A stretch of DNA of 64,000 nt from Rhizodiscina lignyota (lineage: Eukaryota). The notes beneath the pieces were generated by a model, which saw only the letters and a program-made list of their open reading frames with translations, had not been told where the DNA came from and made no database searches. A program made the translations under genes and the position numbers. Below, piece after piece: positions 3,101 to 38,219 of the stretch. Every line of letters begins with the position of its first letter. Within the stretch, counting starts at the first letter, position 1. The stretch lies in the NCBI GenBank assembly GCA_010015805.1, contig ML978121.1:124001-188000 (forward strand). The letters are read 5' to 3'.

Positions 3101-4036
3101 AGCATGGAGAAGCTCATGAAGCTGCGACGAGGTGCTTTCGGCGATGGTTCGAGGAACAGCATGAGCGATAGCAGCGCTGCGAGCGGCTCAAGCCCGAGAA
3201 ACTCAAGTCCGGTGGCGCAGACGAGCGGATATATGCTACCGAGGGGCGCTCAGATCCAACATCCCGGCCAGCATCCCGCAGTTGGATGGTTGAATGGCGT
3301 GGGCATTGGCGTCAGCGGTGTCGAAGGTCTAGAGAGGCTCGGCGAAGACGACGAGAGCGACACCGACAACAGTGTGGACGTAGAAGGCGAGCAAGACTCG
3401 GATTACGAGAGCGACGGTGCCACAGATGACAGAGTGTACGACGACGAGGACTCGCCCATGCCAGACTCTCCCACCATCATCGCCACCGATTCACAGTCTC
3501 TTGGCTCCTCACCTGTCACCACCGCCCCGCCTCAGCAGCCTCAGTTTCCATCCCTCGCCCAGCTCCACCTGCAAGGCTTCTTCAACTTGAATCAACCTCC
3601 CTCCCCACCAAACACGAATCGCTTCGACACCGATCCCCACACACCCATCTCCCCATCCTCCACTTCCGTCTCCCTCAACTCGCCTACGACCGCCCTGCGC
3701 ACCGCTGCGCACAGAGACAACACCAGCAAAGCTGCCGCTAACATGACCAAGACCCTCCCGCGGATGCAAATCCCGTCAAGCCCGAGCCGATACGCACCTG
3801 CCAGCACCGGTGGTGACGGTGCAGCCCTCCGCAAGATTCCGTCGCCCTCGCTGCCGCACAGCCCGGCGCATTCACGCAATTCTAGCCAGAACGAGAGCGG
3901 CATAACGGTGACGTACGTGCGGGAGCGCGATAATTCGGCCGAGGGGCATCGGTGGGTGCTGGAGAGGCGGAGGACGAGCGAGGCGGGCGAGGTGACGGTT
4001 TTGGGGAGGGAGGTTGTTACCGGGGGGAGGATATGA
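122..4036 (+). CDS. Large, low-complexity, intrinsically disordered fungal protein of unknown function (about 1300 aa)
   Basis: Single uninterrupted ORF; first in-frame ATG at 122. Rich in S/P/D/E, with short ordered-looking islands (NPMSLLLRRRS, YDPRIIGTRVHDFSAPRP, EYGREFGFY, REPNLTPITERSEYS, WVLERRRT). No function assignable. Confidence 0.8.
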   Translation: MERPQMNRRPHTSQSSMTTGLRSRGQSAQVGQGLSPGAGMQRGPSATTSPVQTQASLFSSVENISYQRTLPLPQQPSAPASASSFYSVAYDEARSHTPPIKTNTPGKPPTPPPPANLKQKTKLNLRNPMSLLLRRRSGQQLDPLQVPDEGLLLALNRSNLPDDYDPRIIGTRVHDFSAPRPPPKRFHTTPNQPGINESGEFMLRVHSSDDSQRQESESPPKPKRAHTPTFMEHFDDDDNTDKAVRAEELANKDFLARNSYHPPGDDMGAPLPPFARAASGQLLSPEPGPAITEEDDGAHAEVVPEPPSRTPPIPPGLAADVANEASVSSITATPEDKTKHVQPPPSEARAPSSASPPRPRQRTSRMSRDSLPSHLNSTASRFSFQFGGPDSQLQEKILEERHKAKQAQRDMATKMRQDEEEWVEDDDGYGDYDDGGMYEERIPGVNADFEEDGFDDGFSLPEGMRPMGMDPLEPVGFREDNPLGVADIVAAQRMALSSNPPSPADYSPASLDAISLRLPSNASARPSIDLKGRSSIGSRSGARLDGSLSGSRSADRSRDVLPEAEEEESDGVSLQSLKQEESETPEIDIADNGIGGVAEDLSDDLYFDDGIIEDPGYAEDAPHFDESAFDDPSNPLYERRPVNGASNRPLAGEGTSADSTPEKPRVTSLESNARPFSGVSDGNVRPFSEVSDNFGDPARKNHLSDFENLNAYHDALAQAATKAFSDGRFSRKESVDHSRGFSLDNEFQRYSADSSTASDAEKSKISGLHSSGQSLVQDDARYSNSSASQAARTSTTIGSSDGVKSSVPSYDPLRFSEPADSAFNFDPSSYQFDTSFDDYDNDDPMIAAANAEALANDDEGEYGREFGFYAAPPPGGPLNGFCHNIRGADTASLSSDDGSEVEFMNGGYFGPKGVDLVGRNKSLREPNLTPITERSEYSTRNSCVSLFGLQSSGNLAQPPLSAGITPLSAGAMPSPGLAELARMGSFGLEDDEMSMEKLMKLRRGAFGDGSRNSMSDSSAASGSSPRNSSPVAQTSGYMLPRGAQIQHPGQHPAVGWLNGVGIGVSGVEGLERLGEDDESDTDNSVDVEGEQDSDYESDGATDDRVYDDEDSPMPDSPTIIATDSQSLGSSPVTTAPPQQPQFPSLAQLHLQGFFNLNQPPSPPNTNRFDTDPHTPISPSSTSVSLNSPTTALRTAAHRDNTSKAAANMTKTLPRMQIPSSPSRYAPASTGGDGAALRKIPSPSLPHSPAHSRNSSQNESGITVTYVRERDNSAEGHRWVLERRRTSEAGEVTVLGREVVTGGRI

Positions 4037-6530: not shown

Positions 6531-8401
6531 AATGTGGGAGTTCGATGACTTGGAATTGAGCCGAATGAAAGTGTAGTTGCTTTTTCGTGTCGGAATCTGA
6601 TTGAAGATTGAATGATAATAGAGAAGAAGGCTGAAACTATGAAGCCTTTATATACCGTTAGTCAATCATTTAACGGCTGCATTTTTTCAACGGTGATCAA
6701 TCCCGCTCAAATTGACAACATTGATGGGCTTGAAACTCGACCATTTCGAATTCTGAGTTACTAATCACAATGCTCTCTGACGGTTAATGGAAATAGATGA
6801 AATAATGTTGCGACTCAACAAAGACGAATGAATGTGGAGACTTGAGATGGAACGTGATTGAAGACTGTCGTCCGACCTATTAGGAAGGAATGGTTTCTCT
6901 CTGTGTAGTTAAGGCTTTCCAGTTCTGTTTAACGTGAACTGAAACTGTGATATTTGTAAGACTAGGGACCGAGATAAGGAGAACTTTCTCCTTCTCACGA
7001 GGCCTGATAATTCTGACGCGCAGCTCTCGGCCTTTGAAGAGTACCACCTCCACCCTTTTATGCCTTGTCTTGATGCCTGGTTGGGAGTTTCCGACCAGGA
7101 TGGTAATTGCTGCTTGTCACGGTTCTATTCTCATTTCTGCTTAAAGAAGAGGTCCTGGTCCGGTGCTTGCGAGCAACGTTCGCCATCTCGGTCCAGACCA
7201 GAACGATAATTTGATGGATGATTGCTGGCCTCAGACTTCGAGAGAGCAATTGCGCAACGAGTGCTTCCGAGCTTAAATCGGCATTGCAGATAGAGAGGCA
7301 TGGCATCATGCAACTGAGTCATTGGTGCCGGAATTTACACCTCCTATATAGGGGCTCCATCCTACTCGGCGGTAGCGCCAGACGAAGTCTCGCCAAGCTG
7401 GAGTTCCCTTTCCTCTTTCGGTATGGCCTGTGACCCCTGACTTTCTCTCCAGTTAATATCTAAGTTACTTCCCCGCACCCTCTCCAAACTTTCCATCTCT
7501 GTCACTCTCTTGGCACTACATCTCATGCCATCCTGGCGTTTCGTCACTGGAGCGTTACTTTCCTTCGAGATTCCGACCGCTTGCTTTCATCTCCTTTCAG
7601 CCTGAACTAATTGAAGATTGTTTCCTGTTTCCTTGTGCTTTGTACGTTCAGTTGCGATTAACCGCCTTGGCAGTTATGAGTCTCCAGTCTTTGATGAGAT
7701 CTTGCGCATTATCAATGTTGTTCATTTTCGGTCAGTCTCATCAATTGTTTGACATGATAGAGGAGAGATGAAGAAGAATAAATAGTCCTGGAAACCCAGA
7801 GAATTCGACAAAACGGCATCCGCCCCACAGCCGTGAAGCACAAACGACTCATTCGCAGGTTTTCTCCAATGTGCTAGCTCTGAAGCTTCGAACCTCGGAC
7901 TGAAATGTTCCACATTCCACGACATCGAACACAATATACCCGAGAAGCGGCTCTCGGAGAATATCCTAAAGAAGTGAAGGGCACAGAAACCTTGCGAGCA
8001 TCATTGCTCGGCTACATTGTCCCTGAATTGACGTCCACTTAGAGTTGAGTTGCTCGAAGCAATATGACATCAACGGCCACGAACGTGTCCAAAAGGACTT
8101 CCGGAATCATCGGCAATCCTTATTTGAGGGGTGTAGATCCTTAGAAGAGGGGAGCTTCATCGCCAAGACAAACGCGGGGAGTTCACGATGGAAAGTGAAT
8201 GTCCGAACATGATTAATATATTATGAAGCGCAAATGACTGTTCGCTGCGGACGAAGGTTCCAAATCTGCAATCAGGGCTCTGAGAAAGGTGTGGCTGTCC
8301 TGCCGCGCTTGATACTCTTCAAACTCAAAGAACCGCGAGGAACACGAACACGACTGACATTCTAATTACTTACTTTTGCGGTGTGGACACTTCGGATTGC
8401 A

Positions 8402-9544
8402 ATGTCGACTATCAGGAGCTTGATATATGGGCTGGTGTTGATACTGGCGGCGGCGCTGACTGCCATGGCCGCTCCAGGATATACACCCCAGGGACTTCGA
8501 CCTGGGGTTGAATGCCCAGTGGACCCAGGTAATCTGCCGCCAAATACCAAGCAGGTAGGCGCACTCGTTTGCCCGAGCTAAAGTATACTCGAATTGACAG
8601 AGATCTAGATAACGTACTTCGGGGAGCGTGCCGCCTTCTCACCCGATGGCAAGAAAATAGCGTTCATGGACAAGAGCTACGGCGACGCATTCGAACTGGA
8701 CTTGGAAACGAATCGTATCACACTATTGACACATCCTCAGAACGCCGGCTTCTTGCGTGTCCAGTACCTCCCGAACGGTGACTACGTCCTCATTGGCTCT
8801 CGCAGCTTTGTTGACATCACAACCACACGCGACACAACCCAGGAGCTCTGGGTTCTGAAGCAAGGCGAGATCAACCCGATCCCTCTGAATCACTTTATCG
8901 ATGAAGGTGTGGCAATTTCGCGCAAGAGTGCGAAGATCGCTTGGGCTATCAACCATGACAACTATCCTGGTGTGCTCATCGAAGGAGAAACCCTCATCTA
9001 CACTGCCGACGTCGTGTACGCCAAAAACGGTACTCCTTACCTCGACAATCAGAAGGAAGTGATTCGAGCTTGGTCTCCGGACTGTGTACTAGAACCTCAG
9101 GATTTCCGGAATGATGATAATGAACTCATCTTCATCTGCTACAGACAGATTACGGCCGAGATATCCCTCGCGAATATGCGTGGCATCGACTTGAACACCG
9201 GCAAAATAAGCGTCTACAGAAACGTAACTAACGAGTACAACGAAGTCGAAGGCATTTATCCTGACGGCCAATACGAGTTGGTCGAGTCGAGCAAGGGCCA
9301 GATACATCCTCATGGGGACGATGCAATCGACATTTGGAAGCTCAAAATAGAGCCTCACGGAACGAATTTTCGAAGGGTTACATGTTTCGGATCTAACGTT
9401 AACGGCAAGAGCCCCATCAACAAGGCCAGCAACCCTGTGGTCAGTCCAAATGGGCACACAATTGCTTTCCAGGCCGCGATAGCCGGGGATCCAGCAGGCG
9501 TTGGTTATGGGCTATTCCTCCTTGATCGAAGCGAAACAAGCTAG
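8402..9544 (+). CDS. Secreted TolB-like beta-propeller protein (PD40/WD40-like repeats)
   Basis: Signal peptide from ATG 8402. Intron about 8555-8608 (GTAGGC...CTAG) joins ...PPNTKQ to ITYFGERAAFSPDGKKIAFMDKSY. PD40 motifs FSPDGKKIAF and NPVVSPNGHTIAF. Confidence 0.8.
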
Positions 9545-9551
9545 CTGCTAG

Positions 9552-9785
9552 CACGGGGGTGAAAAAAATAGTTGAGCCCGGTTGGCCGAACGCCCGGAGT
9601 AAGAACGAGTTTTGTTCTTCCGCACGGACGAGAATATCAGTGAAAGCTCGATTAGATATAATACTAGATAGTATTTATCCAAAATTCGCAGCTTCAGCAT
9701 ACATAGTCTATGTTCACTGGCAGACGTGTGTATCTTCGCGGTGGCCTATATTGCAGCCACAACTCAACTATTTTATGACCTACTT
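9552..9785 (+). mobile_element. MITE family A, copy 1 (degenerate TIRs)
   Basis: Left end CACGGGGGTGAAAAAAATAGTTGAGCCC, right end ACTCAACTATTTTATGACCTACTT. Body is colinear with 12733-12930 (shared AACGAGTTTTGTTCTTC, TGAAAGCTCGATTA, TATATTGCAGCCAC). Confidence 0.75.
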
Positions 9786-10133
9786 CCCCAAAATTAACAG
9801 CGATCGAACAGCAAATGCAGACGTCAGATAACCGTTCTGTAGACTGCATTTCTATCCGGTGGCTACGCCGTAAGAATTTCAGAGTGCCTACGGAGAAATT
9901 ACAGACCAGCCAGTTATTCAAGGATTCTATGTACTATTTCGTATACTGTCATATTTCGGTGTCTTCTTCCTGGTGGCACGCTCAACCAGAACCAGAAAAT
10001 TACGTTACCAGTCAGTTAAAGCCTTTAATACTTTGGGCATAGCGAAATGAGTCGAACAGAGGGCTTGGGAGATACGAGTACGATACGCAAGTGATGCTGT
10101 ACTCTTGAGGAACCAGGAGGGATGAGCGACATC

Positions 10134-10290
10134 CAAGTGGGTGACAAAAAAGTTGGCCGCAGCTTTCGGGACAGTGAACAGCATTGGTGTATAGCCACTG
10201 TGAATAACACAAGGTACAGGTTTGTAAATGGCCTGTAATTGTTTAGTGTACTCCGGAGAATATATAACTGAGCTTCCAGAGATACTCTCA
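10134..10290 (-). mobile_element. MITE family A, degenerate partial copy in reverse orientation
   Basis: Starts with CAAGTGGGTGACAAAAAAGTTG (matches the family terminus). GAGCTTCCAGAGATACTCTC matches the reverse complement of GAGAGCGTCTCTGAAAGCTC in the 12.8-kb copy. Confidence 0.6.
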
Positions 10291-11196
10291 ATTGTCGTGA
10301 GGTGTAAGAGCTATTAGTCCTCGTAAGTTACCTACCATCTGGGCTGATGACCCTGATGACCACCAACCTTACAAACGCCCACCGTAGGACACGCTAAATA
10401 TCTCGGGCCGCCACAGCTGAGTTGGCGACTTTATCCCTCCACCCAACTTTCGTCGCGTTCATCGTGACCACTCTCACACCTTCTGCTCCCAGCACCATGC
10501 CGTTCATCTCAGAGACCAAGATAAAGCTCGCTTACTTCGAAGGTATTCGGGTATCGTACTCGAGTTTGCCGTTAGCATCAGCCGTCGAGCATTTCCACGT
10601 ACGAAGGAGCTTGTTTCCGGGGAGCGAACGAGACCTGGAACAGCGTCCCTTTTCCGTCATAACGAGAAGCAAAGCTACTAAGGTAGCTTGGGTAAGCTAC
10701 TCCCTAGTAGCCTCGAATAGAACCTCACCACCTTAAAGAAGCTTCTTGGAAATGCCGAGAGCAAATTTAAAACTTGCCTTCGCAGACTATTCGCTCACTG
10801 GAGACTTTTTCCATCGTACGGAGTAGAGTACCACAATGCGCAATCCAACATGAACCATGAACCAACTGGCTCCCGCTCAACGGGTTCAAGAGACTACATA
10901 GATCTTTTATTGCAGATTTATGCTTAGTATTCCAAGTTCGTTCAAACTTTCGCATTTGGTTTTCCGTTACGGAATTCCCTGCCCTGCTATGGGCATTGGT
11001 CTCCTTAATCGTAAGCTGACCTAACAGTCAAAAGTTTTCTAATCAATCTTGACGTCTTATTAACGAAATAATGTGCTTCGGAGCGCAAGAATGTGGAGTG
11101 CACACGCACTTTACATGTGTTTTAGTGTCCGCTCTTTTATCTGCTTTCCGATTCTCTCTCCGGTCATTACCGCTACTAGTACTTCGGAAAATCAAC

Positions 11197-12732
11197 ATGC
11201 TGTCTTCAAGGCGTTCTCTCATTTTGCTTTTAAGCATCATTAGCTTTGCAGTTGCTAGCAGCAGTATCGATTTGAGTGGGCTACTCCCTCAGCTCTCTCC
11301 ACATGCTTCCGTCACCGATGGATCCAACCTGGCTGCACAGCGATGGACTGAATTCGACTCTCCGACTCCTGGCGCGACTGTAAATGTTGCGACTGAGCAG
11401 GATGTTCTCGTGACGGTAATGGCCGCAACTTTGAATGACGAGTTATACACTGACTTCTCACGTGTTAAGGTCCAATACTGCATTAGAGAGAACATCGAAT
11501 TCCTCTCACAGAATGGGGGACATGGGTGGTCAACTACGATCCATTTGAAACAGAACGGGATTATCATCAATCTAGGAGCTCTCAACGATGTTACTTTCAA
11601 CAAGGCCAAAACCGAAGTCACCGTTCTCGGTGGCGCTCTGGTGTCTGACGTTGTTGCTGCTCAGTTTGCAAATCAAGCCATTGTTGCCACCGGGACTTGC
11701 AATTGCGTTGGCGCTCTCGGATCCGCACTTGGCGGCGGACTCGGAAATCTTCAAGGAAAACTCGGACTCATCTCGGACAGCATAATTTCCCTCAACGTTG
11801 TCACTGCCTCAGGAAAATCCATAACTGTTACCGAAAAGGACTTTGATCTCTGGTGGGCTCTTCGTGGGTCTGCGGCAAACTTCGCCATAGTTACGTCGGT
11901 AATTATGCGATCTCATCCAGTCGAGGCAGCTGGGTTAACTGCTTGGACGGGTCCTCTGATCTTTGCGGAGAACAAGCTGGAAGAACTGGTTCAAGCAGTA
12001 GATGAGCTCTTTTTGAAGCCAGAAATGAGCGTATCTCTAGTATTTGTCTCATCCGGGCCCCCAAACAATACAGCCCAGGTCATCGCCAGCGTCTTCTTCT
12101 ACGGCACAGAAGAAGAGGGAAGGCAAGCATTTGCGCCCCTGTACAAAATCGGTCCCCTTGTAGATGGTACAACTATTCAGCCGGTTACACGTTGGAATGA
12201 CGCCAACAACTCAACTTGCGTTAAAGGAGAACGGAAGCAAACATTTGGCGCAGGTCTCGCGCGCATGGTGCCTGCCACATGGCGTGAAATATACAAGGAG
12301 TTCCAGTCATTTATTCAACTTTCTGGGTCGGCCAACAGCTCTGTCGTGGTCAATGCAGATTCACTAGTCGAGCTCCGCCAGATTCCAGAAGGAAGCTCTT
12401 CTTTTCCATTCCGTAATACAATCAATTTCCATGCCTTCACGGTGGCTTGGTATGCGGATCCAGCCCTCGACCATCGAGCTACAGCGTATGGCTCCAACGT
12501 GCGTGATCTATGGCGTTCAACATCGGGACTAAAAGAGAATAGCACGTCAGTTACCGTATGAAGAGCCATCAAGACCCGAACATGCTAACGTAGAGTCAGA
12601 TACATAAACAACGCTTACGGAGATGAAGCCCTGGAGGTGGTCTACGGGCACAATCTTGAGAGACTGAAAGCTCTGAAGCGGCAGTTCGACCCTTATGGGC
12701 GATTCACTCAGTGGTTCTCTTTAGCTGATTAA
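11197..12732 (+). CDS. Secreted FAD-linked oxidoreductase (berberine-bridge / VAO family)
   Basis: Signal peptide; QNGGHG FAD-His motif and GTCNCVG. In-frame 54-nt intron 11416-11469 and a second intron about 12546-12599 lead to the BBE tail YINNAYGDE...YGHNLERLKALKRQFDP; stop TAA at 12730-12732. Confidence 0.9.
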
Positions 12733-12930
12733 CTGAGCGGCTGTAGTAACAACGAGTTTTGTTCTTCAGCATGAACGAGAGCGTCTCTGAAAGCTCGATT
12801 AAGTATAGACCGGACAGTATGTATCCCAAACACAGCTTCAGTGTGTACAATCTGGATTAACTTACGAGGATATGTATCCTCACGATTCAATATATTGCAG
12901 CCACGACTCAACCTTTTTGGCACCCACTTG
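12733..12930 (+). mobile_element. MITE family A, copy lacking an intact left terminus
   Basis: Colinear similarity to 9600-9785; right end GACTCAACCTTTTTGGCACCCACTTG. The left boundary is approximate. Confidence 0.7.
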
Positions 12931-13120
12931 CTTGATTCTAGCCAGGACATGAATCGGGGCAGCAATACATAGATTTGTATATTATGTCACATGTCCATCG
13001 AACGTACACAGATAATAAAACACTGTTCTGCGAATCCTCCAAATTCTCAGGAGCAACTGATTGATGCGACCGTTCAGTTGCTCATCTGCCTGACTGGCCC
13101 TTCCGCGGACGAGCTGAGAT

Positions 13121-13831
13121 TCACTGGTCCTGCTCTCCAGTCTCACCATGCAAGCCACTCGGAGAAACGTCCTCGATCTTATGAGAGTATTTCTCAGGAT
13201 GTGCCTCTCTGTCCGCTTCATGCGCATCATTGCTGTCCGCCTCGCCCAGAAAAGCTGCGTTCTTCGCGTCCTGCGGGTCGATGTCATGCCTGTGCTTTTC
13301 CGGGTTCTCGTTGAAGTCCTGTTCAAAGGCATCATCGCTGTCTGCTTCTCCTAGGAATGCTGCATTTTTGGCGTCAAGGGGAACTTGTTTTCGACCCTCT
13401 ATGTCTTTTTCAACTTCGAAGGCGTCGTTGCTGTCTCCTTCGCCCAAGAATGCAGCATTCTTGCTGTCCATGGCCTCATGGCGGTCGGCAAGAGCATCGC
13501 GGAAAGCCTCATGCCCATCGTTGGAGTCGGCCTCGCCCAGGAAAGCAGCGTACTTTGCATCTTCTTCGGGGGCCTGGTTTTGACCGGATGGAGATGCAGA
13601 CTGGGCAATCGAGTTGACCACGGGATTGCTGGAATCAGCTGGAGGAGATTGGGTAGTGCCAGGCTGAAATAGAGCAGGTCCTGGGTGGAAGAATCTCTGG
13701 TTGAGGACACTCTGCTTGTTCAGAGAATATGCCGTGATGATCGCGGCTGGGCCGGCCTTTGTTGGTAGAGCCGAGAGCGCTGGCCTGGCAGCAGAAGAGA
13801 GTGCCAGTGAGAATGCTCGAAAGGACGCCAT
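13121..13831 (-). CDS. Protein with a mitochondrial-type presequence and four acidic repeats (D[AS]K[NY]AAFLGE[AG]DS[ND]D)
   Basis: 236-aa intronless ORF. N-terminus is Ser/Ala/Arg-rich and lacks acidic residues (…QRFFH…); four near-identical repeats follow. Confidence 0.8.
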   Translation of the reverse strand: MASFRAFSLALSSAARPALSALPTKAGPAAIITAYSLNKQSVLNQRFFHPGPALFQPGTTQSPPADSSNPVVNSIAQSASPSGQNQAPEEDAKYAAFLGEADSNDGHEAFRDALADRHEAMDSKNAAFLGEGDSNDAFEVEKDIEGRKQVPLDAKNAAFLGEADSDDAFEQDFNENPEKHRHDIDPQDAKNAAFLGEADSNDAHEADREAHPEKYSHKIEDVSPSGLHGETGEQDQ

Positions 13832-15360
13832 TATGTCAATTGAAATTTCATAGCCTGGTGTCTCGAAGTTGAAGAAACGTCCAATTTACCTTTCTCGACA
13901 CCATCTCGATCATACTGAGGGGGTTGCTACCCCACATGACGCTTTGCATTCCCATTTTGGCGATACGGAGGTACATCCGCTGAGTAACAGTCGATCATTG
14001 TATTTGCATGTGATGCGCTTCGAACGCGTGTATAAAATTGGGAAAGGGATCAACTTGGACATTTCCAGCATCCAATGGACAGAATGTGGGAGTCCGACAG
14101 TGTCACCGTCGGCTCTGCGTGCCAATAAGTTGGCAATTGTAGATGAATTCTGTCGCTCTAATTAATGGTAAGTACGGTGTCATCGTATTTCGTCTAAGAT
14201 TAATAAATGTCTCTGTAGTATAGAGTGATTTCGATGGACGAGGCTCGTGGCAATCCAGTGCCTTCGTGAGCGGACTGTCTCCCTGACGAATCACGTCTGG
14301 ATGCCGCAGAAACCTGAAAACTCTTTCGACGGCGCCTTGTAGCGCTAAAGATGATTCCATCTATGCCAAAGGTCAAGGTCGATTTTCAATAGACAAAATG
14401 GAAGAAAGTCTTCTCGAAGAAGGCTGGGACATGGTGATAACGCGGCGATGAGATCCGAAGAACGATCGGAGCAGAAAAGAAGTTCTACCATTCGTATCCA
14501 TTGCCGCTAAACCCAATTCGGGCCACGTCAGTCCACAAGATAGGAGTATCGCCAGGATACAACAGACGTTGCCGCTCTCCCGTGCTCCATCAACCTTCAT
14601 TCTCACAATCGCATCACTTACAATGAGCCTGAGCGCCATGGAGTTCTGGAAACGCTGCAGCAGAACGCGTCAGTCCATGCAACGCGTTGGTCGTTGAAAC
14701 ATCGCTTCGCCCAGTCTACTCCGTAGGAAGTATGTACTCCGTACACTCGTGCGGCATCGGAAATATCAATCCAACGTCGTCGATCGTGATTGGCCGAAGA
14801 TTTGCGGCGTTTGGAATGTGGCGCACGTTGAAATGATACCCGTTTGGGAATAGCACGAGAGTCTGCGTCTTCACAGCTGGACCAGCAGCTATGGATACAC
14901 AAACCACATGCGCTATACCGAGAGCAGTTGCATTCCTCCACGCCGCGCGCTAAACATGTGTGTTTAAAATGCACAATACGAAGGCTGTCGCAAGCAAGAT
15001 TCCCATCCTTCCCTTTAGCGGCTCTACTTGCGAGAAGCAACCTCTGACGATGAGTGATTTCCACACGTATGGTGCGAAAGATAAATACACACCTATCGCC
15101 ACGTCCATTTAATGAGGCAGCTACTGCCTGAGGTAGGATCGGCGTTGTGCTTAAATGCTCTCAACTCCGTCCGTTGGAACCCAAATATTTGACGTGTAGG
15201 AGGCTACAAACAGATTGCTCCAATTCTCATCTTTTCTTCAGCTTCCACAGCTGAAAATCGTCTTGAATACCTTCAACATTCCTTCTTGTCGTTAAATTAT
15301 AATAGTCGCCTTTCAATTGCTCTCGTGAGCCTTGCGCCGTTCTCCCTTCCAGAGAAAATC

Positions 15361-20614: not shown

Positions 20615-21659
20615 GGTGAAATGCTTGGTGAATCTTGGGGTGATTGAGATATTGAGGGAGATCTGAGATGAAAATAAGAGGAAGTGTTCGAAAACCCTTA
20701 CGACTGTTGGAAGACCGAGGTGAGGACTGGAGAGAGACGGGAACCTTGATCAAGGCAGCAGCAGCCGGTGTGACGTGATGTTTTCGAGTGGAGGAAGGCA
20801 CGCGCTGAAGTTGCGCCTTCCCGATGCGCGAAACCACCAAAACGCAAAGCTCCGCAGTGATGGGCCGGAAACATGAGATGGAAAGCATAAGGAGGTAAAT
20901 AGAGATTTCTCATGCGTGCATCATGTTTATAAACGCATTTCATACTGCGAAGAAACCATATTAGTGCTTGCAAGTGTTGTATCTGGGGCCCGTGCGTATG
21001 GTGTTGCCGCGGCGCTTGGAGTTTGTATTCAATTCGCGTATTTTCTAGTACTCACTCACGGGAAATGGTCATTTAGTGCAGTGGCTATGCGAGAGCACTA
21101 TGAAGACCGCTGCACTCAGGGAGTTACTAACCTTGATACAGGTCCATTCAACGAACAGCTCGGAGAGAAGCTACATAAGGAGCTTGCTTCTGTGCTCACA
21201 AGCCCTCTTCGTAACTAGTATGCGTTAAAGGAACTAGCAATGCCGTGAGTTCGCGTCTTTTTTGCACTCCTGTTCAAATCCCAGACCTTTTTTTCCATAT
21301 ATCTTCGTGGACGAGCAGTTTCGCTCTTGTCGATGCTCTGCAAATCTCAAGCAACGCATGGATGTCTCGATGACACTGACACTGCTTTCGAGCCTTTTTT
21401 TGCATTTATAGACTTAACTAAAGCGCAAAAACATCACACTCCGACCCTCTGCTCGCGTTTAGATACAAACAGGAACATCGGCTACGTACAAAACCATACT
21501 TTCGTTTTTACAACCTGGGCCGTCCTTTACGATTTCTTCATTTCTGCCGCATAGTCACGAGTGCACGACTTGTGATGGGATTGTGTCGCTTGAATCTCGG
21601 TAGCTCAGTATCTATGGGTGCATACTCTGGTTAACGGATCTCTTTCAGGCCGATGCATC

Positions 21660-22364
21660 TCAGCAACTTCCAAATCCAACCATGTTCAACGTGTTGATCT
21701 CCTCTGTCGGATCGCCTTTCATAAACACGTCGCCGCAATGGACAGTGTGATTATAGATCCTCAGATACCCCTCCAAGTTTCGTCCAGACTCGATAAACCG
21801 ATGCATCTTCCGCCAGGTATACGCACAATGCGTAGCGTGCTCCCTCTGGGTTGTCCAAAACGGATCGCGATACTCCAGGTTTTGCAGCTCGGACTCTGGA
21901 ATCTCCGCTGTACCCTCCTTGTCCGCCCAATACGTCCATGGCCCTTCAGCGCGGAAAGCGTTCAGCAGCTCCAAGTCCTGACATTCGCGCGGGAGCCATC
22001 CCGGAGCCAGAACATCGAAGACGCAGCCTCGTTCCTTGGCTTCTGCTACCGTACTTCCGCAGAAGTAAGTGTCGACGGCGTGGGACTCGTATATGGCTTT
22101 GTCCAGGTGCGGAGGAGCTGGTCGTTGTCCCACTCGCTGTGCAAGCTGCAAGTGTGTAATCCAACCCGCTGAGTAGCTGCAAATGGCAATCATGATGGCG
22201 ACGCAGCTGGCACCTACAGCTACGAGCCACTTTCTTCTAGTACCTTTCTTGAACTCTGAATAGATCCGGTGTGATGAAGGATCCGCAAGGGTGTCTTCGT
22301 ATAATGGAGGTGTTGAATCCTCTGTCTGTGGAACAGCATTGTATCCTTTCTTTGTCGATGACAT
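21660..22364 (-). CDS. Divergent double-HXXHC type II membrane protein (UstYa/DUF3328-like oxidase)
   Basis: 234 aa from ATG 22364, intronless; one N-terminal TM segment (WLVAVGASCVAIMIAICSY). Contains CGSTVAEAKERGCVFD..W.P..C and two HXXHC motifs, HATHC and HTVHC. Confidence 0.8.
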   Translation of the reverse strand: MSSTKKGYNAVPQTEDSTPPLYEDTLADPSSHRIYSEFKKGTRRKWLVAVGASCVAIMIAICSYSAGWITHLQLAQRVGQRPAPPHLDKAIYESHAVDTYFCGSTVAEAKERGCVFDVLAPGWLPRECQDLELLNAFRAEGPWTYWADKEGTAEIPESELQNLEYRDPFWTTQREHATHCAYTWRKMHRFIESGRNLEGYLRIYNHTVHCGDVFMKGDPTEEINTLNMVGFGSC

Positions 22365-22900
22365 CTTGAGTCTGAACGAATATTGTCTTTGGGCTTCAGT
22401 GCCGCAAGTATAGGATTTAGAAGAGGTGGTTTGGAGTGGTACCCAGGAGTTAGAATGCAGATACTGATACCCAAAGAAGGTGCCCAGCTCTCGCAAGAGA
22501 TACGGTGATCGTACGACAAACACCGTCTGATTAGGAACCTCAAACTCCTTTTAGAAAGACGGTTGATAATGAGACGTGATATTGAAACATTGCTCCCTCC
22601 GTGCCTATGACTGCATGCCCTTCGTTGATCACCTCGCATAACATACCTTCTGCGGTGATCTTGCGGCCGGCGGCCGGGTTAGAACTTGCCAGGGCACTTT
22701 CCCGCTCTGCAGTCAGCTTATTTCATTCATTGTCTTTGTTGTTTAACCGTGAGACATGATATCTTTGCGAAGATCATGGTATACTCCGCAACACAGGATT
22801 GAGAAACACGCTAATGCCAGCATGGGTTCTGCTGTAGTAGTGAGTTTAGCGGTGAAGGCCAAACTTATGGAATAATGCTCCAGAGCTGAGAGCCGCTGAA

Positions 22901-22908
22901 TATATAAA
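22901..22908 (+). promoter_or_regulatory. TATA box of the small peptide gene
   Basis: TATATAAA about 110 bp upstream of ATG 23013, in the 650-bp divergent intergenic region. Confidence 0.55.
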
Positions 22909-23012
22909 GCAATGTACCATGCCAAGCGAGATATCACGGACAAGTCGCAAGAGCCAGATTCCTCCAGCTTGTTACAGACACAGCATCCTCCTTTGCTCAA
23001 AAACCTTTGAAA

Positions 23013-23211
23013 ATGAAGTCCTTCATTGCTCTCTTCGTCGTTCTTCTCGGCGCGTCATTTGTTATGGCCAACCCTATCCCAAACCCAACCCCTGAAGACC
23101 TCGAGGTGAGTTCCCTAACCACAGTACACAATTTCCCTCTGAAGTTTAATCTCTGCATAGGAGGATATCCAGCAGCAGTGGTTCATCAAGAAGTACGGTG
23201 ACAAGGCATAG
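23013..23211 (+). CDS. Small secreted peptide, putative RiPP precursor (47 aa: MKSFIALFVVLLGASFVMA-NPIPNPTPEDLE-EDIQQQWFIKKYGDKA)
   Basis: Exon 1 23013-23105, phase-0 intron 23106-23160 (GTGAGT...CATAG), exon 2 23161-23211 ending in TAG. Clear signal peptide and acidic ED leader; lies among three HXXHC genes. The CDS is well supported; the precursor role is inferred. Confidence 0.75.
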
Positions 23212-23826
23212 ACGGGTTAGATATCCTCAAAGCTTGTCGTTTTACTCCCCCTCTGATGGAGACATACAGCTTTCAGAGGATATCATCAGGGCAGCATCAA
23301 AGGACAAAAGGCATTTCAAGCGTTAGATGACATTGACGCTCATTGGTGTGGTCTCAACGCCTGCCTAGGGTTGCGGAGGTTGCTGTATGTAGCATTTAAT
23401 GCGAAGCCAATCGTAGGCGCGGTCCGTGAAAAGAATTATCCGATCTGCGTAACTTCTCAGTGTGAAGGTGACAATGTAGTACGAGTGTTGAAATAGGAAG
23501 TGCCGATACGAATTACCTGAATGGACTTAATCCCAGAAGATAGAACCAATCATTCTGTCAAAGCTTTCGGTGCAACAGGTTTTGTGCTCGAAAGCACTAT
23601 GGTGCACACCAGCGTCACCATGCAAGTACTCTCTTCGATTCGGTTATTGGTATTTGCACGCTGGCTTAACCAGCGGTACTGGTAGCTTAGAAAGGGTAAT
23701 GAAGGAGGAGGTCGAAGTTCCGAGGGCTAACCAAATTAGGTGAGAGAGCTTACATGGTGCGTGACAGCCTTCTCGAGCGAAGTACCTGTCGCGCGAAAGC
23801 TACAGTACCACACTCTGCATATATTC

Positions 23827-24768
23827 TCATGTACAATGTTGTTCCACTATTGGATCCGTTTCATGCATATAAGATGCTCTTTGGGTCCACATTTTACGAT
23901 GCCTTCGGAATATGTGAATCGAGCAGATCAAAAGTGATCCTGCAAGCACTGCAAGTGCCCAATTGGCGGTAACAGCGAGCCCTGGACTTGGTGTAGCATG
24001 GACATCATGACTTGAACTGGGCGCGACTGCCTGGGTGAGCGTTGTTTCGGAAATGCCCCAGGGTCTGTATGGGCGAGATATCTGGGGGATAGTCGCCAGC
24101 TCTTGGTCCAGACTCGACTCCGCTGAAGCCCTCAGGTTCGCTTGGAGCGTGCCGTGAAAGTTGTGGGCCTCAATTCTGGCACTATCATCGAAGGAGCCCC
24201 CGAAATTCTGATCGGAATTGATAGCCCAGAGGATGGGCTGACTGTCAGACTCTGTATCGACAGTTTGAGGAGAAAAGTCGAGCAAGGCCCACGTGCTGCA
24301 GTTGTAACAGACCAGCTGAACTTCCAACACTTTAGCCGGAGCGGTGACGGATGCCTCATCGTCGAAATCGGAAAACTTTGCGCTCAGTATGTCGATCCGC
24401 GGAATCGAAAAGTAGCCCAAGGCAAACTTTGCCGAGGGATCCACCAGCGCATGCCCCATACCTGCACGTACAACTGTGGTAGCAATTTGAGAATGAGAAT
24501 ACGGGTCTCCGAAAATGACGAACATAAGCGATCCATGCATCTGAGGGCCGAGGCCGATACCGATCCAGCCTGCGGAGGAAGCGTTCAGGCGCTCTGTGAT
24601 GATCGTCGTGTATAGATCAACTGACGGAAATGCTGTTGTGTAATTCTTGAAGGTTGAAATTGCAAGGCAGAATGCATAATTTGCTGCTACATCTTCTTTG
24701 CAAAACTGCAATGGTTTCGAAAAGGCGGTAACGGTGAAGCAAAGGATCCATAGTAACCGAATCAACAT
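23827..24768 (-). CDS. Secreted/membrane-anchored cellobiose-dehydrogenase-type cytochrome (DOMON, heme b) domain protein
   Basis: Signal peptide from ATG 24768. GWIGIGLGPQMHGSLMFV (candidate Met heme ligand), CYNCSTW, QPILWA, IEAHNFHG (candidate His ligand); C-terminal hydrophobic segment WALAVLAGSLLICSIHIF followed by RRHRK. Confidence 0.82.
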   Translation of the reverse strand: MLIRLLWILCFTVTAFSKPLQFCKEDVAANYAFCLAISTFKNYTTAFPSVDLYTTIITERLNASSAGWIGIGLGPQMHGSLMFVIFGDPYSHSQIATTVVRAGMGHALVDPSAKFALGYFSIPRIDILSAKFSDFDDEASVTAPAKVLEVQLVCYNCSTWALLDFSPQTVDTESDSQPILWAINSDQNFGGSFDDSARIEAHNFHGTLQANLRASAESSLDQELATIPQISRPYRPWGISETTLTQAVAPSSSHDVHATPSPGLAVTANWALAVLAGSLLICSIHIFRRHRKMWTQRASYMHETDPIVEQHCT

Positions 24769-24986
24769 TTGGGGCAATGACGTGAAAAGGGAAGTGATAC
24801 AAACCGGCTTCAGGGAAATATGCTTAAATACGAAGCTCAGCTCGCCGACCTTGAAGATTAGTCACTAAAGTAAGACGACATACATAAGCGGCCCCTGGCT
24901 GCCTGGCATGGGTCGTTCCCCAGGTTCCCGATACGGTTATAGGTCATCTTCAGGATTCCGCAGCTACAGAAGACATGGGAAGCTAT

Positions 24987-26022
24987 CTACGGATGCAACT
25001 CGGTCACAATGTGATCTAAAGTCCAGGCATGGATGTCCCAGAAGTTCCGGCATTTGTGCATTGTCTTGAAATCCATGTGCGAGCCCCAATCCTCCTCTAC
25101 AGTATGAACCAGTACTGGCGTTACGTCCGCCGTGCACATCAGGTTCAGTCTTAGCGTATCAATACAATGATCTATTGGAGTACAGGAAGTCAGTAATCCA
25201 GACAGATCGAGCAGACATGGGACATACCCAAATGGTCGTGGAAGCCCTTTACGTGCTCTGGCTCAAACGTATCCTTATAGTAGCCAAAATAGTCAAAGAA
25301 CTCTTCCCGATAGATTCCAAGGCGAATATAATACTGTACACCGACATTGGGTCAGTAATACTTTTGTGTGCTTCCGAGGAAATAGCAAATACCCACAAGA
25401 CAATGCAACTGATGAAATACCTCCACTGCGCCTACAAGCTCATCGGGTCTGTCTTCTGCTACAGGCCTCCAACTTGCATTTGCTGCGATCCCTGGGGGAT
25501 TTTCTGGTTTACCGAGAGCAGCAAGTTTGTCTCGAGGAACTGAGATGCCGATGACTCCCATTTCACAATCAGCACCGGGAGAAACATTAAGATCTTTGAG
25601 ACTCACGAGCACCAGTTAGATGTCTCCACGCTGCTTCCGTCTCGTTGGTTGGTGGCCCTCTGTAGGGAGATGGATGTCCAAAATCGCCAGGAATATTGGA
25701 AGAGGAGTAACGAATAATATCGGCATCAAGAAGTGGAGCTGTGAAGTTGGTTAGCAAGAAGTTTGAAGTATCGTGAATATGTCGTACACCAAGGCGAAAG
25801 CTTGCGGGAGCATTCTTCATCTGTTGGTTGCGCTTGTTGTACCCATATGAGTCTCCACGATGAGGCTAGAAGCAACAGAAGTTGCAAGCCATAAACAGCA
25901 CAAGTCCACCTTGATGGCAGCGGCGACGCAAATATGCTCCATAAGGGCCTCCGCGATCTACTCGCGATTGAAAAGTCCGCGAGCCTGAGTTTCTCGCTCT
26001 GTACTTTGATGAAGCTCGCCAT
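24987..26022 (-). CDS. DUF3328 / UstYa-family oxidase (paralogue A, 5 exons)
   Basis: Manually spliced: TM segment, SPWSPLLDA, SPYRGPPTNETEAAW, VEVFHQLHCL, YYIRL, HLDHCIDTLRLNLMCTADVTP, DFKTMHKCRNFWDI; stop TAG at 24987-24989. Confidence 0.92.
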
Positions 26023-26432
26023 CAGGCTTGGCTGGGTTGAGAAGGTCCCATGTATCGGACTTTGCGAAGATGAGTGGAATTGAATTTTGGGTTGAATTTC
26101 GCTTGATGTCTGGGGTGATTTTAGCGCGGCCTTTTCTTCCGCAAACAAACAGAAAGGCAGGGTTCAGTCAGTTCGAAAGCATCGCCCTTCTTACTTGGAT
26201 CCGTCCTTACGTGAGACGCTTATCCACCTCGGAAGACTACCTGTTAGAAAGTACACAACGATCTAGCGATAGCGATGATGGCGGTTAGGATGTGGAGAAA
26301 TTTGGAATCCTTAGATGCAGGTGCGGACATGCGGACTGCAGAGAGATTTAAAATCTTCCTAAGCAGGGAATTGTGCCATTCTGGTCCGGGCCGCTTAATC
26401 GACATTGAAAGAGGGAATTTCCGTCACGCAAA

Positions 26433-27421
26433 CTACCTGATAGCGATATGATTGAACACCCATTCGCGGATATCCCAGAAGTTTCTGCATGTGTGTTTCG
26501 TATCGAAGTCTGGAGTCACTCCGCCCCAAGCTTCGGCATCATTGATTAACAGCACAGGTGTGACATCAGAGACGCACATCAGGTTGATCCTGATGATCTC
26601 GACGCAGTGATCTGTACTTCTGTCTTAGTCGTGCACCGGACCGGTTGGAGATAGCTGATGAACTTACCAAGATGCATTTTCTTCATTTTCTCGTCAAGCT
26701 CTGGCTCTTCCTGTATTGGCCACTCGTGAAAGCGTTCGAAGTACTCATCCCGGTAAAAGTGGAGTCTCAGAGTGCTCTAGATCAGCTCATCAGCGATTCA
26801 AATGGGGCCAAGAAAGGACATGAAACTTGCAAGGCAGTGGAGTTGGTGGAACATTTCAGTCAGTCCCGCAACTGAGTCCGGTCTTGATTCGGTGGGGGCT
26901 TCTCTCCAGTCGCCCTCTCTTGACTTATTCAAAAGGTCTAGCTTGTTTCGGGGAATGGCAATTGAAGGGTCTAAGGAAACGTGTTAGTCTTCAAGGTGCT
27001 ATGTTGGTAGAACAAGACCATACTGTCCCAAATGTCCTTCCAAGCGGCCTCCGTCTCTGGAGTTGGAGGCCCACTCCATTTTGAATCCGCGGGGAACGGA
27101 TTGGAGATGACGGCGCTTTCGTATTTGATGATTCCGGAGTCGATGATCGGGGCTATATCTGTTAAAACTGTATAAACTGAGGACACTGCACAACGTACAG
27201 TACGGTGATAATTGTCTTGCGCATTGTGTGTCCGTTGGCTGGTGGAGAAAAGAGATGAGGAGTAGTAGTAGTGATATCGACAGTAGGCCACTTTGCGATG
27301 TCCAGAACGGCCAGTATGCCCATCGAGAATTCGTAGCGTTTGATATCTCCCCGCTCAAGAAGCCAGTATTTTCAGGCACTTCCTCAAGGTCATCGCGGGC
27401 GGTGTCCGATGATGAGTTCAT
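26433..27421 (-). CDS. DUF3328 / UstYa-family oxidase (paralogue B, 5 exons, one GC-AG intron)
   Basis: Manually spliced: TM segment, SPYSPIIDS, WSGPPTPETEAAW, EMFHQLHCL, STLRL, HLDHCVEIIRINLMCVSDVTP, DFDTKHTCRNFWDIREW; stop TAG at 26433-26435. Confidence 0.92.
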
Positions 27422-27871
27422 TGTTAACGTCTGTATGTTCAATAAACTCGGAAGAGCAATTGTGAAAGTGATTGTTGGAGAAAAGTCAGGCTGAGTCGAA
27501 GTCGACATTATCCGCGTGCTGGGACTTTATCATGATGGAAAGACTTGCTATGTCAGCATAAGCAGTGCAACGTGATATCCCACGGCAAGTGACTTGGTGC
27601 GCCGTAAAATATCGTCGTATCAGCTCTCAGAGTGTCTAGGCGTATTAGATCGAAACTATGCCAACGAGATGATAGCTTGAGGATCGCTTCACAGAGCGAA
27701 AAGGCACGGCTCTTGATGAACAAAAGCCATGCAATCGAACTTATAATCTCAGTCTATTACATGAATGGCCAGGTGGCTATAATTGCAATTGTATTCCGTA
27801 ACGTTGCGTGAACGACAGCGCATGGAAAGTTCCCGTTGTCTCGGTAGCGACCCGCGGAGTGGGCAGACAAA

Positions 27872-28056
27872 GTGGGTGACAAAATAGTTGAGTCGAGGCT
27901 GTAATATATCGAACCGCGAGGATGTATATCCTCGTCAGTAAATATAGGTTGTATATACTAAAGCTACACGATTTTCATAAATATACTCCAGTATTTGTGT
28001 AATCGTGGTTTTAGAGATGCTCTCGCATGTCTGGGCTCAACTATTTTGTCACCCGC
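27872..28056 (-). mobile_element. MITE family A, copy with intact TIRs
   Basis: Perfect 19-bp inverted repeat GGGTGACAAAATAGTTGAG (27874-27892) / CTCAACTATTTTGTCACCC (28036-28054). Interior resembles the reverse complement of the 9.6-kb and 12.8-kb copies, with an internal deletion. Confidence 0.8.
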
Positions 28057-35329: not shown

Positions 35330-36934
35330 TCAAGGGAACACCTTGAACCCTCCCGGCAAAGCTGATTGAAAGAATCCGTTCAGATCATACTTCTTGCTCA
35401 CAGCCTGCAGCCTCGCCTTCTCCGCCTTCCCGTAGCTCGCAATCGGGTCCTGTGACCTGTCCGCATAGTTGAGATACTGGTACGGAATGTAAAGGCCTTT
35501 CTGGCGACACAAATCTTCCTGCTTGACGACGATATCTTCCATCCCCTTCTGCACGGTATCGTCGTCTGCTGCGTTTGCGTACGCTGCCGTGAGCACAGTG
35601 ACGACGAAGTCCGTCTCTCCGGCGGGCAGTCCGAGCGAGCTCTTTCCGGTTGAGACGGGCTGTGGCTGGATGAGCAGGACGAGTTGCAGGTTCTCAATGT
35701 GCGCCAGAGCCTCTGTACCGTCTTCCCAGATCTTGAAGAGGTCGGAGTAGAAGTCGGCGTCTCCATTTCGGAAGGAGAACACAAGGTCGATCGCGCTACA
35801 TGATATAATGAGTCGCGGTCCATGTCTTGACTCGTAATTCCAACGGCACTTACCGTGAAGCACCAGGAGGCAATGATCCACTCGCTTCGGTCACAAGAGA
35901 TGTCACATTCGTCAGGCGCAGAGTGTTTGCGATGGACGGAATAGCTGTAAAAGGCCTGTAGATCGGAGGATTCACGACCGGCTTGATGTAATAAAGGTCA
36001 CCGCCGACTGCATATACTTGCCCGGGGTTCTGGAAGACGAGCGCCATACCCATATCCGCCGAATCGTCGAAATTCTTGGGGTCCATGAAGCTGCTGAAAG
36101 CTTTGGCGTTCGCCGCTAGGATCTCGGGCGTATAGTTGAACGCAAGGCCGCCACCCCACATACCTTCAATCTCCCAAGTGGGAGCTTCAATTCTCGTTAC
36201 GATTCCATAGTTGTTTGAGCCGCCTTTGAGTGCAAGCCATAGATCTGGATAAGAGCGTTCGTTGACCTCAAGGATCTGTCCGGTGGCGTCGACAAGCTGA
36301 TAATTGTAGATATTCTCACAAGCCCAGCCCTGTCGCCTGGAGAGGTAGGAGATTCCACCTGCACTCGTCAGTCTCTTGAGACGGAAATTCACAGCAGATT
36401 CAAGATACCTCCAGTCGAGAACCCTCCCACTCCAATTCCCGGGACCCTTCCTCCCATGACAGTGAGATTGTACTTGTCGAGCACCGGGTAAATCTCACTC
36501 CAGATCCCGCCACTTCCAAGTGAGACTATCTTCCTGTCCTCGCTGAGCTGTAAGGAGTTCATCGAGCCCATATCGACGGTGATGCCACCTTGGATGTTCG
36601 CTGCCCCTGTCCAGATCATGTGTCCGCCGCTCCTGAGTGCGAATTGCGGACCACGATACGAGCCGTAGCCATGACCAGGATTTATCAACTTGATGAATCG
36701 GGAGACATCTTCAGCACAGGTGGGAGAGAAAACGCATCCGGGATGCAATTGGCGCTCCTGGCCAGAGTAATAGGAAGAGATGGAGTCGTTGTAAGTCGAA
36801 CTACCAGGATACGAGACATGGCCAACTTTTGACGCCAGGAGCTTGCAATATGAAGCTATATCTACAACGCTAGTGGCCGAAGTGGCTAAAACGAACGACG
36901 CGATGAGAAAGGGAACAGAGTGTGAACTCAACAT
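35330..36934 (-). CDS. Secreted FAD-binding oxidoreductase (FAD_binding_4 / VAO family)
   Basis: Signal peptide; FALRSGGH, GGRVPGIGVGG, DLWLALKGGSNNYGIVT, YLNYADRSQDPI..LQAVSKKYD; introns near 36360-36408 and 35790-35854. Confidence 0.9.
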
Positions 36935-38219
36935 GGTGAATCTGAAAAGTCACCTCGTCACCACCGAGGAGCAGGAGGCTACAAAAGTTAAAGAAAGGAT
37001 CCTGCCGCATCTTGAAGTACGTACGAGGCCCGCATGACTCGTCCAATGGCCAGGAACACGGGATTGACGTTGGCCAGCTCGCCAAAACTAAGCAGTTAGA
37101 TTGCGGAGCAGCCATGGGGTTGTTGGTGAGTCCCCAGTTAATCGCAGAGGTTCCCCATAATTGGGATGTAACCTGAGGCTCCTCTGGGTGCTTCCACCAA
37201 TGATATCGTGCGGGGATTGAGCCTCCAAGTACGCGAGCTACCTTAAGGTCGTATAGGGCCGTTTATGGTTCCTGGCGCTGGCAATAGTGAAATAGAAGAG
37301 GGTGCTTTGCAGTTTTCCATGTCAAAAGTAGAGCCAGTGATCGCTGCTGTTGGGATCGTCTCCGGCTTCACCACATCGAGTCGTATCTTGCGTTGAGGGA
37401 CCTCGGTTCGAGCGTGACGAAAAAGCTAGCCATAGCTTTCAAGACACTGAACAGCTCAGGAGTGTAGCTTTTGTTACCAATTAAACATGCAACGTTTCAA
37501 CGGTGTGCAATTGCAATATACGCTGCAAAGAACCTAAAACCAAACTTTCGCTCTTAGCTGGAAGAGACCTTTGGTACTTGCTGGACAAAATTTTCTATGC
37601 CTTGTCTTCCTGCATGACTAGTGCATCGAGCGCCCGCAAATAATCAAATCGAATCTCGACCATTAGGCAGAAGCTGTGGACTGGGTGACTGTGTTGAGTC
37701 GAGGCGAAGCTTCGTCCACGTGTACAAGTTGCAAGTTGAGCTCCTGCAAAAAATCGAATCGAAGCTCGAACTCGAAACCAAAGCCGGAAGTTGAATAGTT
37801 ACTAAAAGGACATAGCCAAGCTCGGCGCGTAATACGAGCTCGCTAGAGGTGAGGTATTGAAGCGTACGATGAAGATGAGGCATCGATTCGTATCAGGTTG
37901 CGTGGAAGGGAAATATTGTTGATCATCAGCCACAGTCAAAGCCTCAGGCAACCTGTTCACGTGCTTTGATATTGAGATGTGTGGCTGTGCACAGAAAATT
38001 CTCGTCATCGATTGGTGAGTCACTCCTGTCCACGAGCGAACATCGGACGGATGACTCTCACAACAGGATGGTGTGACTTGTCGTTCCAGTCACGAAAGAA
38101 AACCGTAAGTATAAGTAGCCTATCAGTCCTATTCCGTCCTTCTATTCTCTCTTATTTCTACATGGGCGAAGAGAAAGCATTCTTCTACCCTTCCCTCGTC
38201 TTTCTCCTTCGGCGTTACA

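Follow-up and report, generated by a model that had tools for sequence, protein, structure and literature searches.

A candidate single-core precursor peptide gene within a compact block of DUF3328-type oxidase and cytochrome genes in Rhizodiscina lignyota

The peptide gene and its surroundings

The window, by which we mean the whole 64-kb stretch of Rhizodiscina lignyota DNA that was analyzed, holds a block of five genes packed into less than 6 kb (Table 1). Four of these, designated A, B, C, and D, are on the minus strand, and the fifth, a short peptide gene on the plus strand, sits between A and D, 648 bp from the divergently oriented A and 615 bp from D. It is the only precursor-like gene within the block. 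The 648-bp region may act as a common promoter for the peptide gene and A. A comparison of four upstream regions returned two 7-mers present in three of them and no shared 8-mer, which is the level expected by chance. To the left of the block are MYND-finger, DnaJ-C28-like, and MFS genes, with two unrelated genes intervening between the MFS gene (15.2 to 17.4 kb) and the block; the MITE-like element at the right edge has many diverged copies in sequencing run X1. The window may itself derive from this run, which agrees with positions 21000 to 27899 without differences.

Elsewhere in the window, genes for FAD-binding/berberine-bridge-type oxidases occur at 11053-12561 (+) and 35330-36949 (-), about 9 and 8 kb to either side of the block, and we found no evidence tying these two genes to it. 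An open reading frame at 13121-13885 (-), with no Pfam match, encodes a mitochondrial-type N terminus and four copies of an acidic unit of 13 to 20 residues. Long open reading frames (1344, 584, and 395 codons) at 2-4033 (+) and 40921-43870 (+) gave no Pfam match at an E value of 1.

Table 1. Positions of features of the block, counted from the first letter of the window
Feature	Position	Strand	Description
Oxidase A	21660..22364	-	Single exon, 234 aa; one N-terminal membrane helix; two HxxHC motifs; outside the Pfam UstYa cutoff
TATA box (TATATAA) of peptide gene	22901..22907	+	Within the 648-bp region between the peptide gene and the oxidase A gene
Peptide gene exon 1	23013..23105	+	Predicted signal peptide, four X-Pro dipeptides, start of acidic stretch
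Predicted 55-nt phase-0 intron of peptide gene	23106..23160	+	Alternative in-frame acceptors 3, 12, 15, and 18 nt downstream
Peptide gene exon 2	23161..23211	+	16 residues including Gln35-37, Trp38, Phe39, Lys41-Lys42, and Tyr43; stop codon
Gene D	23827..24768	-	313 aa; signal peptide; CDH-type cytochrome domain (PF16010); Met77, His202; one C-terminal membrane helix
Oxidase B	24987..26022	-	Five exons, about 271 aa; UstYa (PF11807); two HxxHC motifs; open frame
Oxidase C	26433..27421	-	Five exons (one GC-AG intron), 259 aa; UstYa (PF11807); two HxxHC motifs; open frame
MITE-like element	27870-28054		About 180 bp; 24-nt terminal inverted repeats, 92% complementary; right edge of block

The peptide gene starts with an ATG at 23013 that has A at position -3 and lies 112 nt downstream of the TATATAA sequence, and it ends with a stop codon at 23209-23211. 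The original prediction had held that removal of a canonical 55-nt phase-0 intron yields a 47-residue product, and recomputing the gene structure returned the same coordinates and the same two-exon product; the unspliced frame, which had been given as 64 residues, has 62 on recount. The predicted intron has a GTGAGT donor, a weak TTTAAT branch site, and a TAG acceptor. Introns of the neighboring genes (n = 8) measure 46 to 63 nt. The donor of the peptide gene scores 8.1, compared with 4.5 to 9.2 for the seven GT donors of the neighbors, and its acceptor scores 4.2, on the weak side of their range of 1.0 to 8.9. Each of the five in-frame acceptors, which give introns of 55, 58, 67, 70, and 73 nt, keeps the product from Trp38 to its end. 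The form with the 67-nt intron scores close to the 55-nt form in a scanner for small secreted genes (27.5 versus 29.7), and so the exact junction is tentative.

Codon usage agrees with the spliced reading. Preferred codons, taken from a list based on general ascomycete knowledge rather than trained on this genome, make up 25 of 31 codons in exon 1 and 14 of 16 in exon 2 in the spliced frame, whereas reading exon 2 in either of its other two frames gives 4 and 2 of 16; the binomial P value for exon 2 is 0.002 against a background of 0.50, and the unspliced tail has 10 of 31. With its score of 29.7 the peptide gene ranked first in the 64 kb, and the only other gene to pass the scanner was a CFEM gene at 18.2. 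None of 1,093 simulated 64-kb windows matched the peptide gene (best simulated score, 22.1), a result which, since the scanner weights were fixed after the gene had been seen, is to be read as far from chance and not as a formal P value. Residues 1 to 19 form a predicted signal peptide cleaved after Ala19, as called by hydrophobicity and a simple cleavage-site rule; a signal peptide is also a feature of Kex2-processed repeat precursors (KEPs). Judged by these features of the DNA, the two-exon gene for 47 residues is very probably real. It seems to be unannotated, since its neighbors A and D are present in the NCBI/UniRef protein collection, whereas the peptide frame has no match there. Queries with the unspliced frame found neither the exact peptide sequence in the protein collection nor, in a word index, any protein of 34 to 109 residues sharing three 5-residue words with the exon 1 frame; the same frame gave one row at 0.77 in the ESM Atlas, which is a lead at most.

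Oxidases and cytochrome of the block

The expectation that UstYa/DUF3328 genes neighbor the peptide gene was borne out by B and C, whose exons score 25.9 to 50.3 bits against Pfam UstYa (cutoff, 25) and which lie 1.8 and 3.2 kb away, as is expected of a dikaritin precursor. C is a tandem paralog of B with identical intron positions; the second acceptor of B has two in-frame choices. Gene A is a different matter. It has no match to UstYa (PF11807) itself, 3 of 40 members of its family give weak UstYa matches below the cutoff (E values of 0.003 to 0.03), and a profile of A set against the UstYa alignment, which has only seven rows, reached an hhalign probability of 0.5, which is no match. A fold search of the PDB with A and sequence searches of the PDB with A and with D were likewise without a match. 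Residues H176, H179, C180, H206, H209, and C210 of A are nonetheless conserved without exception across the 14 sequences aligned, and a structural model (mean pLDDT, 80) places the two HxxHC motifs on neighboring helices (173-193 and 204-216) behind the membrane helix, the arrangement described for CctR (PMC12435403). Motif and predicted topology thus suggest kinship of A with UstYa. A belongs to a large fungal family: with an E-value limit of 0.001, it has 1,769 relatives in a set of representatives clustered at 50% identity. As the family lies beyond the Pfam cutoff, counts of DUF3328 clusters that are based on PF11807 would miss A-type genes.

No tyrosinase, methyltransferase, or kexin or other peptidase was detected in the open reading frames scanned (19 + 73, with the rest of 12 to 36 kb inspected by eye), and no transporter adjoins the block. 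The block therefore differs from the older five-gene description of dikaritin clusters, which lists a tyrosinase, a methyltransferase, a peptidase, or a transporter (PMC12048977).

D scores 41.8 bits against PF16010. As in the fungal proteins that join a CDH-type cytochrome (AA8/DOMON) to b561 (the CYBDOM type), this domain has an invariant Met and His, M77 and H202, found in 17 of 17 aligned sequences, which, as in CDH, we take to be the heme ligands. CYBDOM-type proteins and most relatives of D carry a b561 membrane domain with four His residues, whereas D has a single membrane helix and no b561, and the six frames of 23000-24800 contain no b561 remnant. D shares 27 to 33% identity with proteins from Trichoderma and from metagenomes.

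Loci of A-type relatives

A metagenome scan with the alignment of A recovered 53 loci, which fell into 40 groups, 20 of them with 9.8 kb or more of DNA. Precursor counts refer to these 20 long groups and leave out the 20 shorter ones; several loci end, with their contig, near the oxidase. Multicore precursors were present in 8 of the 20 (L015, L019/20, L029, L032, L039, L042, L043, and L050/51), a short nonrepeat gene in one (L036), and a micro-exon gene in one (L018), and the scanner found no precursor in 10, including the oxidase-rich loci L001-L004 and L013. The repeat units of the multicore precursors contain Tyr in three of eight cases, Trp without Tyr in two, and no aromatic residue in two. 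A small two-exon candidate in L038, 7 kb from the oxidase behind unrelated genes, failed the scanner and was not counted.

The closest parallel in design to the peptide gene is the gene at 7745-7300 (-) in L036, a candidate for a second one-core precursor. It encodes 41 to 48 residues without repeats, has a TATA box, a signal peptide, a Pro-rich acidic linker, and a Tyr-Phe pair near its end, and is interrupted by a first phase-0 intron after Glu and by two further introns, the acceptors being uncertain; the databases contain it only as unspliced read-through. Three UstYa genes and one A-type gene surround it. L043, in turn, is the parallel in gene content. Its cluster at 7916-15296, which looks like an undescribed cluster for a ribosomally synthesized and modified peptide (RiPP), comprises an A-type oxidase, a UstYa oxidase, a CDH-cytochrome/b561 fusion (PF03188; 27% identity to D), a precursor of eight repeats, and an adjoining ABC transporter. 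The precursors of L015 (four repeats) and L019/L020 (nine repeats) are neighbors of A-type and UstYa genes; each of their acidic units lacks Tyr and closes with Trp-Ile and a dibasic site, and the L015 precursor has a short tail after its last dibasic site. Since none of these peptides is homologous to that of the window, the parallels support the kind of gene and not particular residues.

The original prediction had suggested a search for peptide homologs near DUF3328 genes in related genomes. A permissive tblastn search and a degenerate exon 2 pattern found none in the 53 loci, and none was found in viral contigs, an unlikely place. The 53 loci came without the contig of the closest relative of A (P0002/P0152; 65%), and an orthologous peptide gene is most likely to be found there. 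Alignment of the peptide to nine other precursor candidates gave no significant match: a likeness to the L015 repeat that had been noticed by eye was the best and was equaled by 551 of 5,000 shuffles, and 2,265 of 5,000 were as good as the alignment to the L019 repeat.

This lack of a homolog would fit a peptide gene that is a silent or decaying relic, or one that is not spliced, left over from a longer repeat precursor in a disintegrating cluster, as would the weak branch site and acceptor and the truncation of D relative to its relatives. We regard such decay as very improbable, given that all four enzyme genes have open frames and catalytic motifs intact across eight introns, that codon bias extends over both exons of the peptide gene in the spliced frame only, and that no trace of a former repeat or of a b561 domain turned up.

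A second possibility is that the peptide is an independent linear secreted peptide, such as a signal, an effector, or a metal-binding peptide, and that the oxidases act on a precursor encoded elsewhere or on a nonpeptide metabolite. Half of the long A-type groups are without a precursor, and about two-thirds of DUF3328 genes lie more than 15 genes away from any KEP gene (2,991 of 9,399 lie within that distance; PMC7329392). DUF3328 enzymes are also known to act on nonribosomal peptides and polyketides (PMC12048977, in part; PMC12435403). In addition, with a multicopy inverted-repeat element at its border, the block may owe its assembly to rearrangement. This reading is countered by the position of the peptide gene inside the block, between A and D; with no more than two genes in 64 kb passing the scanner, it is unlikely to have landed there by chance, and the L036 parallel and the gene set of L043 also point to a functional unit. 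On balance we consider an independent peptide unlikely, while giving it real weight.

The L043 cluster bears on the cytochrome as well. It is the only one of the 40 locus groups in which a cytochrome gene recurs near the A-type oxidase, the other 39 having none within the DNA examined; chance seems an unlikely reason for a cytochrome gene to adjoin an A-type gene in both of two unrelated fungi. The DUF3328 enzyme CctR requires Cu(I) and electrons, and its authors postulated in 2025 that an accessory protein in the oxidizing lumen supplies it with one or the other (PMC12435403). The topology of D fits such a protein, and in its L043 relative a b561 domain could take electrons from one side of the membrane to the other. 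We therefore tentatively propose D as a lumenal electron donor for DUF3328 copper enzymes, at somewhat worse than even odds. A predicted complex of an A dimer with D and heme scored 0.01, which counts neither way, and our literature search, made largely without subscription papers, found nothing linking DUF3328 clusters to CDH-type or b561 cytochromes.

The core and the proposed pathway

The predicted peptide has a single aromatic segment with Trp38, Phe39, and Tyr43, of the kind expected of a dikaritin core, preceded by an acidic stretch at about residues 28 to 33. The acidic linker may resemble that of the asperipin precursor, a likeness that carries no weight here. The peptide consists of one unit with one KK pair (Lys41-Lys42) and has no repeat in its DNA or protein, just as the original prediction of one core had it; there is no dibasic site ahead of the core, the sole KK lying within or after it, and no dibasic-bounded repeats occur within any single frame of the 64-kb window. 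By definition, a KEP has three or more tandem repeats, each 8 aa or longer, bounded by KR, KK, RK, or RR sites (PMC7329392). The peptide gene is accordingly not filed as a KEP, and the expectation that repeat-based mining would miss it holds under this published rule.

How the KK pair is read decides where the core ends. It could be a Kex2/Kex1 site. The core would then end at Ile40, with the oxidases acting on the Gln residues or on Trp38, Phe39, or Ile40; the final five residues, those following KK, would be discarded as a tail, and the gene would represent a Trp-Ile-dibasic repeat array that has collapsed to one unit. The units of L015 and L019/L020 described above are in keeping with this, L015 down to its short tail, and both KEP surveys quoted by PMC7329392 (in excerpt) treat KK as a Kex2 site. 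Near DUF3328 genes, on the other hand, Tyr is enriched in repeats (65.6% versus 38.2%) and Trp is not (20.5% versus 24.5%; PMC7329392, section 7, in excerpt). The likeness to L015 and L019 did not survive the shuffle tests, and all eight repeats of L043, which are bounded by KR, retain an internal KK between a Gln following Arg and a Tyr preceding KR. Kex2, moreover, favors Arg at P1. A core that includes Tyr43 is preferred because of the enrichment of Tyr and not Trp, the internal KK of L043, and this P1 preference, and a core ending at Ile40 seems improbable. Weighing against this preference, Tyr occurs in just three of the eight kinds of repeat unit near A-type genes, and two of the eight close with Trp-Ile and a dibasic site. 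Nothing in the present analysis supports the W-x4-Y macrocycle that had been proposed as the alternative to cleavage at KK.

Among known systems, the dikaritin pathway, in which UstYa homologs cyclize a KEP precursor (PMC10512285, in excerpt), offers the nearest comparisons. The asperipin-2a cluster of Aspergillus flavus (aprA, aprY, aprT, and aprR) is, like the block, minimal, with a secreted precursor, an aromatic-rich core, a DUF3328 oxidase, and no tyrosinase (PMC6514808, in excerpt), and its dicopper enzyme forms ethers from Tyr-O to C-beta (PMC12186524, in excerpt). Unlike the window peptide, AprA is built of repeats and is cleaved at Kex2 sites; the block has one core, no KR, three oxidases, and a cytochrome and lacks a reductase or adjacent transporter. 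The epichloecyclin (gig) core of Epichloe festucae contains Lys and has Phe four residues before the ring-closing Tyr, the spacing of Phe39 and Tyr43 here. In gig precursors, by contrast, each core is preceded by a Kex2 site, cleavage of which exposes the amine for ring closure. The window peptide has no such site, and the kexB and SET methyltransferase genes of the gig cluster have no counterpart in the block. The shared spacing, noticed after the fact, is no more than a lead to Phe39 as a possible partner of Tyr43. Ustiloxin and phomopsin precursors share with the window an endoplasmic reticulum (ER) signal peptide, acidic residues ahead of the core, and two or more UstYa-type oxidases; unlike the window peptide and its block, they have 8 to 16 repeats, cores with N-terminal Tyr, a tyrosinase, a methyltransferase, peptidases, and a regulator (PMC12048977 and PMC6514808, both in excerpt). 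CctR, ApnU, and AprY resemble A, B, and C in having one N-terminal membrane helix and a lumenal domain with a double HxxHC motif. A differs from these three in lying outside the Pfam model and matching no solved structure, and CctR differs from the oxidases as proposed here in that its substrate is a nonribosomal peptide; its electron donor is not known (PMC12435403). By this comparison the block appears to resemble an asperipin- or epichloecyclin-type pathway, yet its peptide is not a KEP.

One-core precursors are not without precedent. Single-repeat gigA-like genes are reported for Aciculosporium take (PMC10540207, section 3.1, in excerpt), where GigB is truncated, whereas the oxidases of the window are intact, and a single core has been suggested for lichen clusters (PMC12048977, in excerpt). 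A literature search that was largely without subscription papers found no characterized one-core dikaritin.

We estimate the probability that the peptide gene encodes a single-core precursor of a dikaritin-like modified peptide, both readings of the core taken together, at roughly 0.6. The multicore precursors in 8 of 20 long A-type groups and the L036 and L043 parallels argue for it; the failure to find an orthologous peptide and the 10 long groups without a precursor argue against it. The narrower proposal, that the core contains Tyr43 and that A to D make up a minimal tailoring set, has in our view slightly less than an even chance.

Under this Tyr43-containing proposal, the peptide would enter the ER and lose residues 1 to 19, and a peptidase of the Ste13/DPP-IV type would trim the four X-Pro dipeptides. 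Dikaritin precursors are described as passing through the ER and Golgi apparatus and being cut like alpha-factor, with Ste13 removing X-Pro and X-Ala dipeptides. The acidic stretch might serve as a recognition leader for A, B, and C, which, as membrane-anchored dicopper oxidases, would act with O2 in the lumen of the Golgi apparatus or vacuole; DUF3328 proteins are membrane-anchored, lumenal, dicopper, and O2 dependent and need Cu(I) (PMC12435403). Tyr43, through its phenol oxygen or a ring carbon, would be cross-linked to a residue among Gln37 to Ile40, Trp38 or Phe39 might be oxidized further, and KK would remain inside the ring or be cut only afterwards. As the block contains no peptidase, the product would presumably be released by housekeeping proteases. 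D would relay electrons in the lumen and so hold the copper in its reduced state; having no b561 domain, it would require a second partner. Ustiloxin yield climbs steeply with repeat number (PMC10512285, in excerpt), and so a single core may give little product.

Mining for fungal RiPPs relies on repeats, and the low proportion of DUF3328 genes near a repeat precursor, together with the missing-precursor problem stated for lichen clusters (PMC12048977, in excerpt), shows where a one-copy, repeat-free precursor would matter, since repeat-based searches cannot find it. The block is small and intact, has independent parallels, and bears both on DUF3328 substrates without repeat precursors and on the electron donor; with five genes and one 28-residue substrate, it is an unusually simple system for studying one-core precursors and for assigning oxidases to bonds. 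D is a named candidate for the accessory reductant postulated for CctR (PMC12435403). Some DUF3328 steps fail in heterologous hosts (PMC10512285, in excerpt), which a reductant such as D, if confirmed, could explain. A broader generalization is conceivable, in which tiny, intron-split one-core genes like those of the window and L036 are a general class of dikaritin precursors that explains a fair share of the roughly two-thirds of DUF3328 genes lacking a nearby repeat precursor, the A family adds one more branch to these peptide oxidases, and the CDH-type cytochrome of such clusters, which in L043 is fused to b561, fills the vacant role of physiological electron donor to DUF3328 copper enzymes, as CDH does for LPMOs. 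We consider it doubtful that all of this will hold.

Several of the precursors beside A-type genes have unusual units. Repeat precursors adjoining A-type oxidases at L029:10093 (+), L039:16556 (+), and L032:3813 (-) have units without Tyr or Trp, and in the precursor at L050:1360 (+) (L050/51) each unit is split by an intron; the A-type branch may therefore act on nonaromatic cores. The micro-exon gene of L018 (3367-4352, +), about 2.8 kb from an A-type oxidase, encodes a secreted peptide and has at least 13 consecutive introns, with 12 single-codon exons and one two-codon exon, and its frame is open throughout as far as it was traced.
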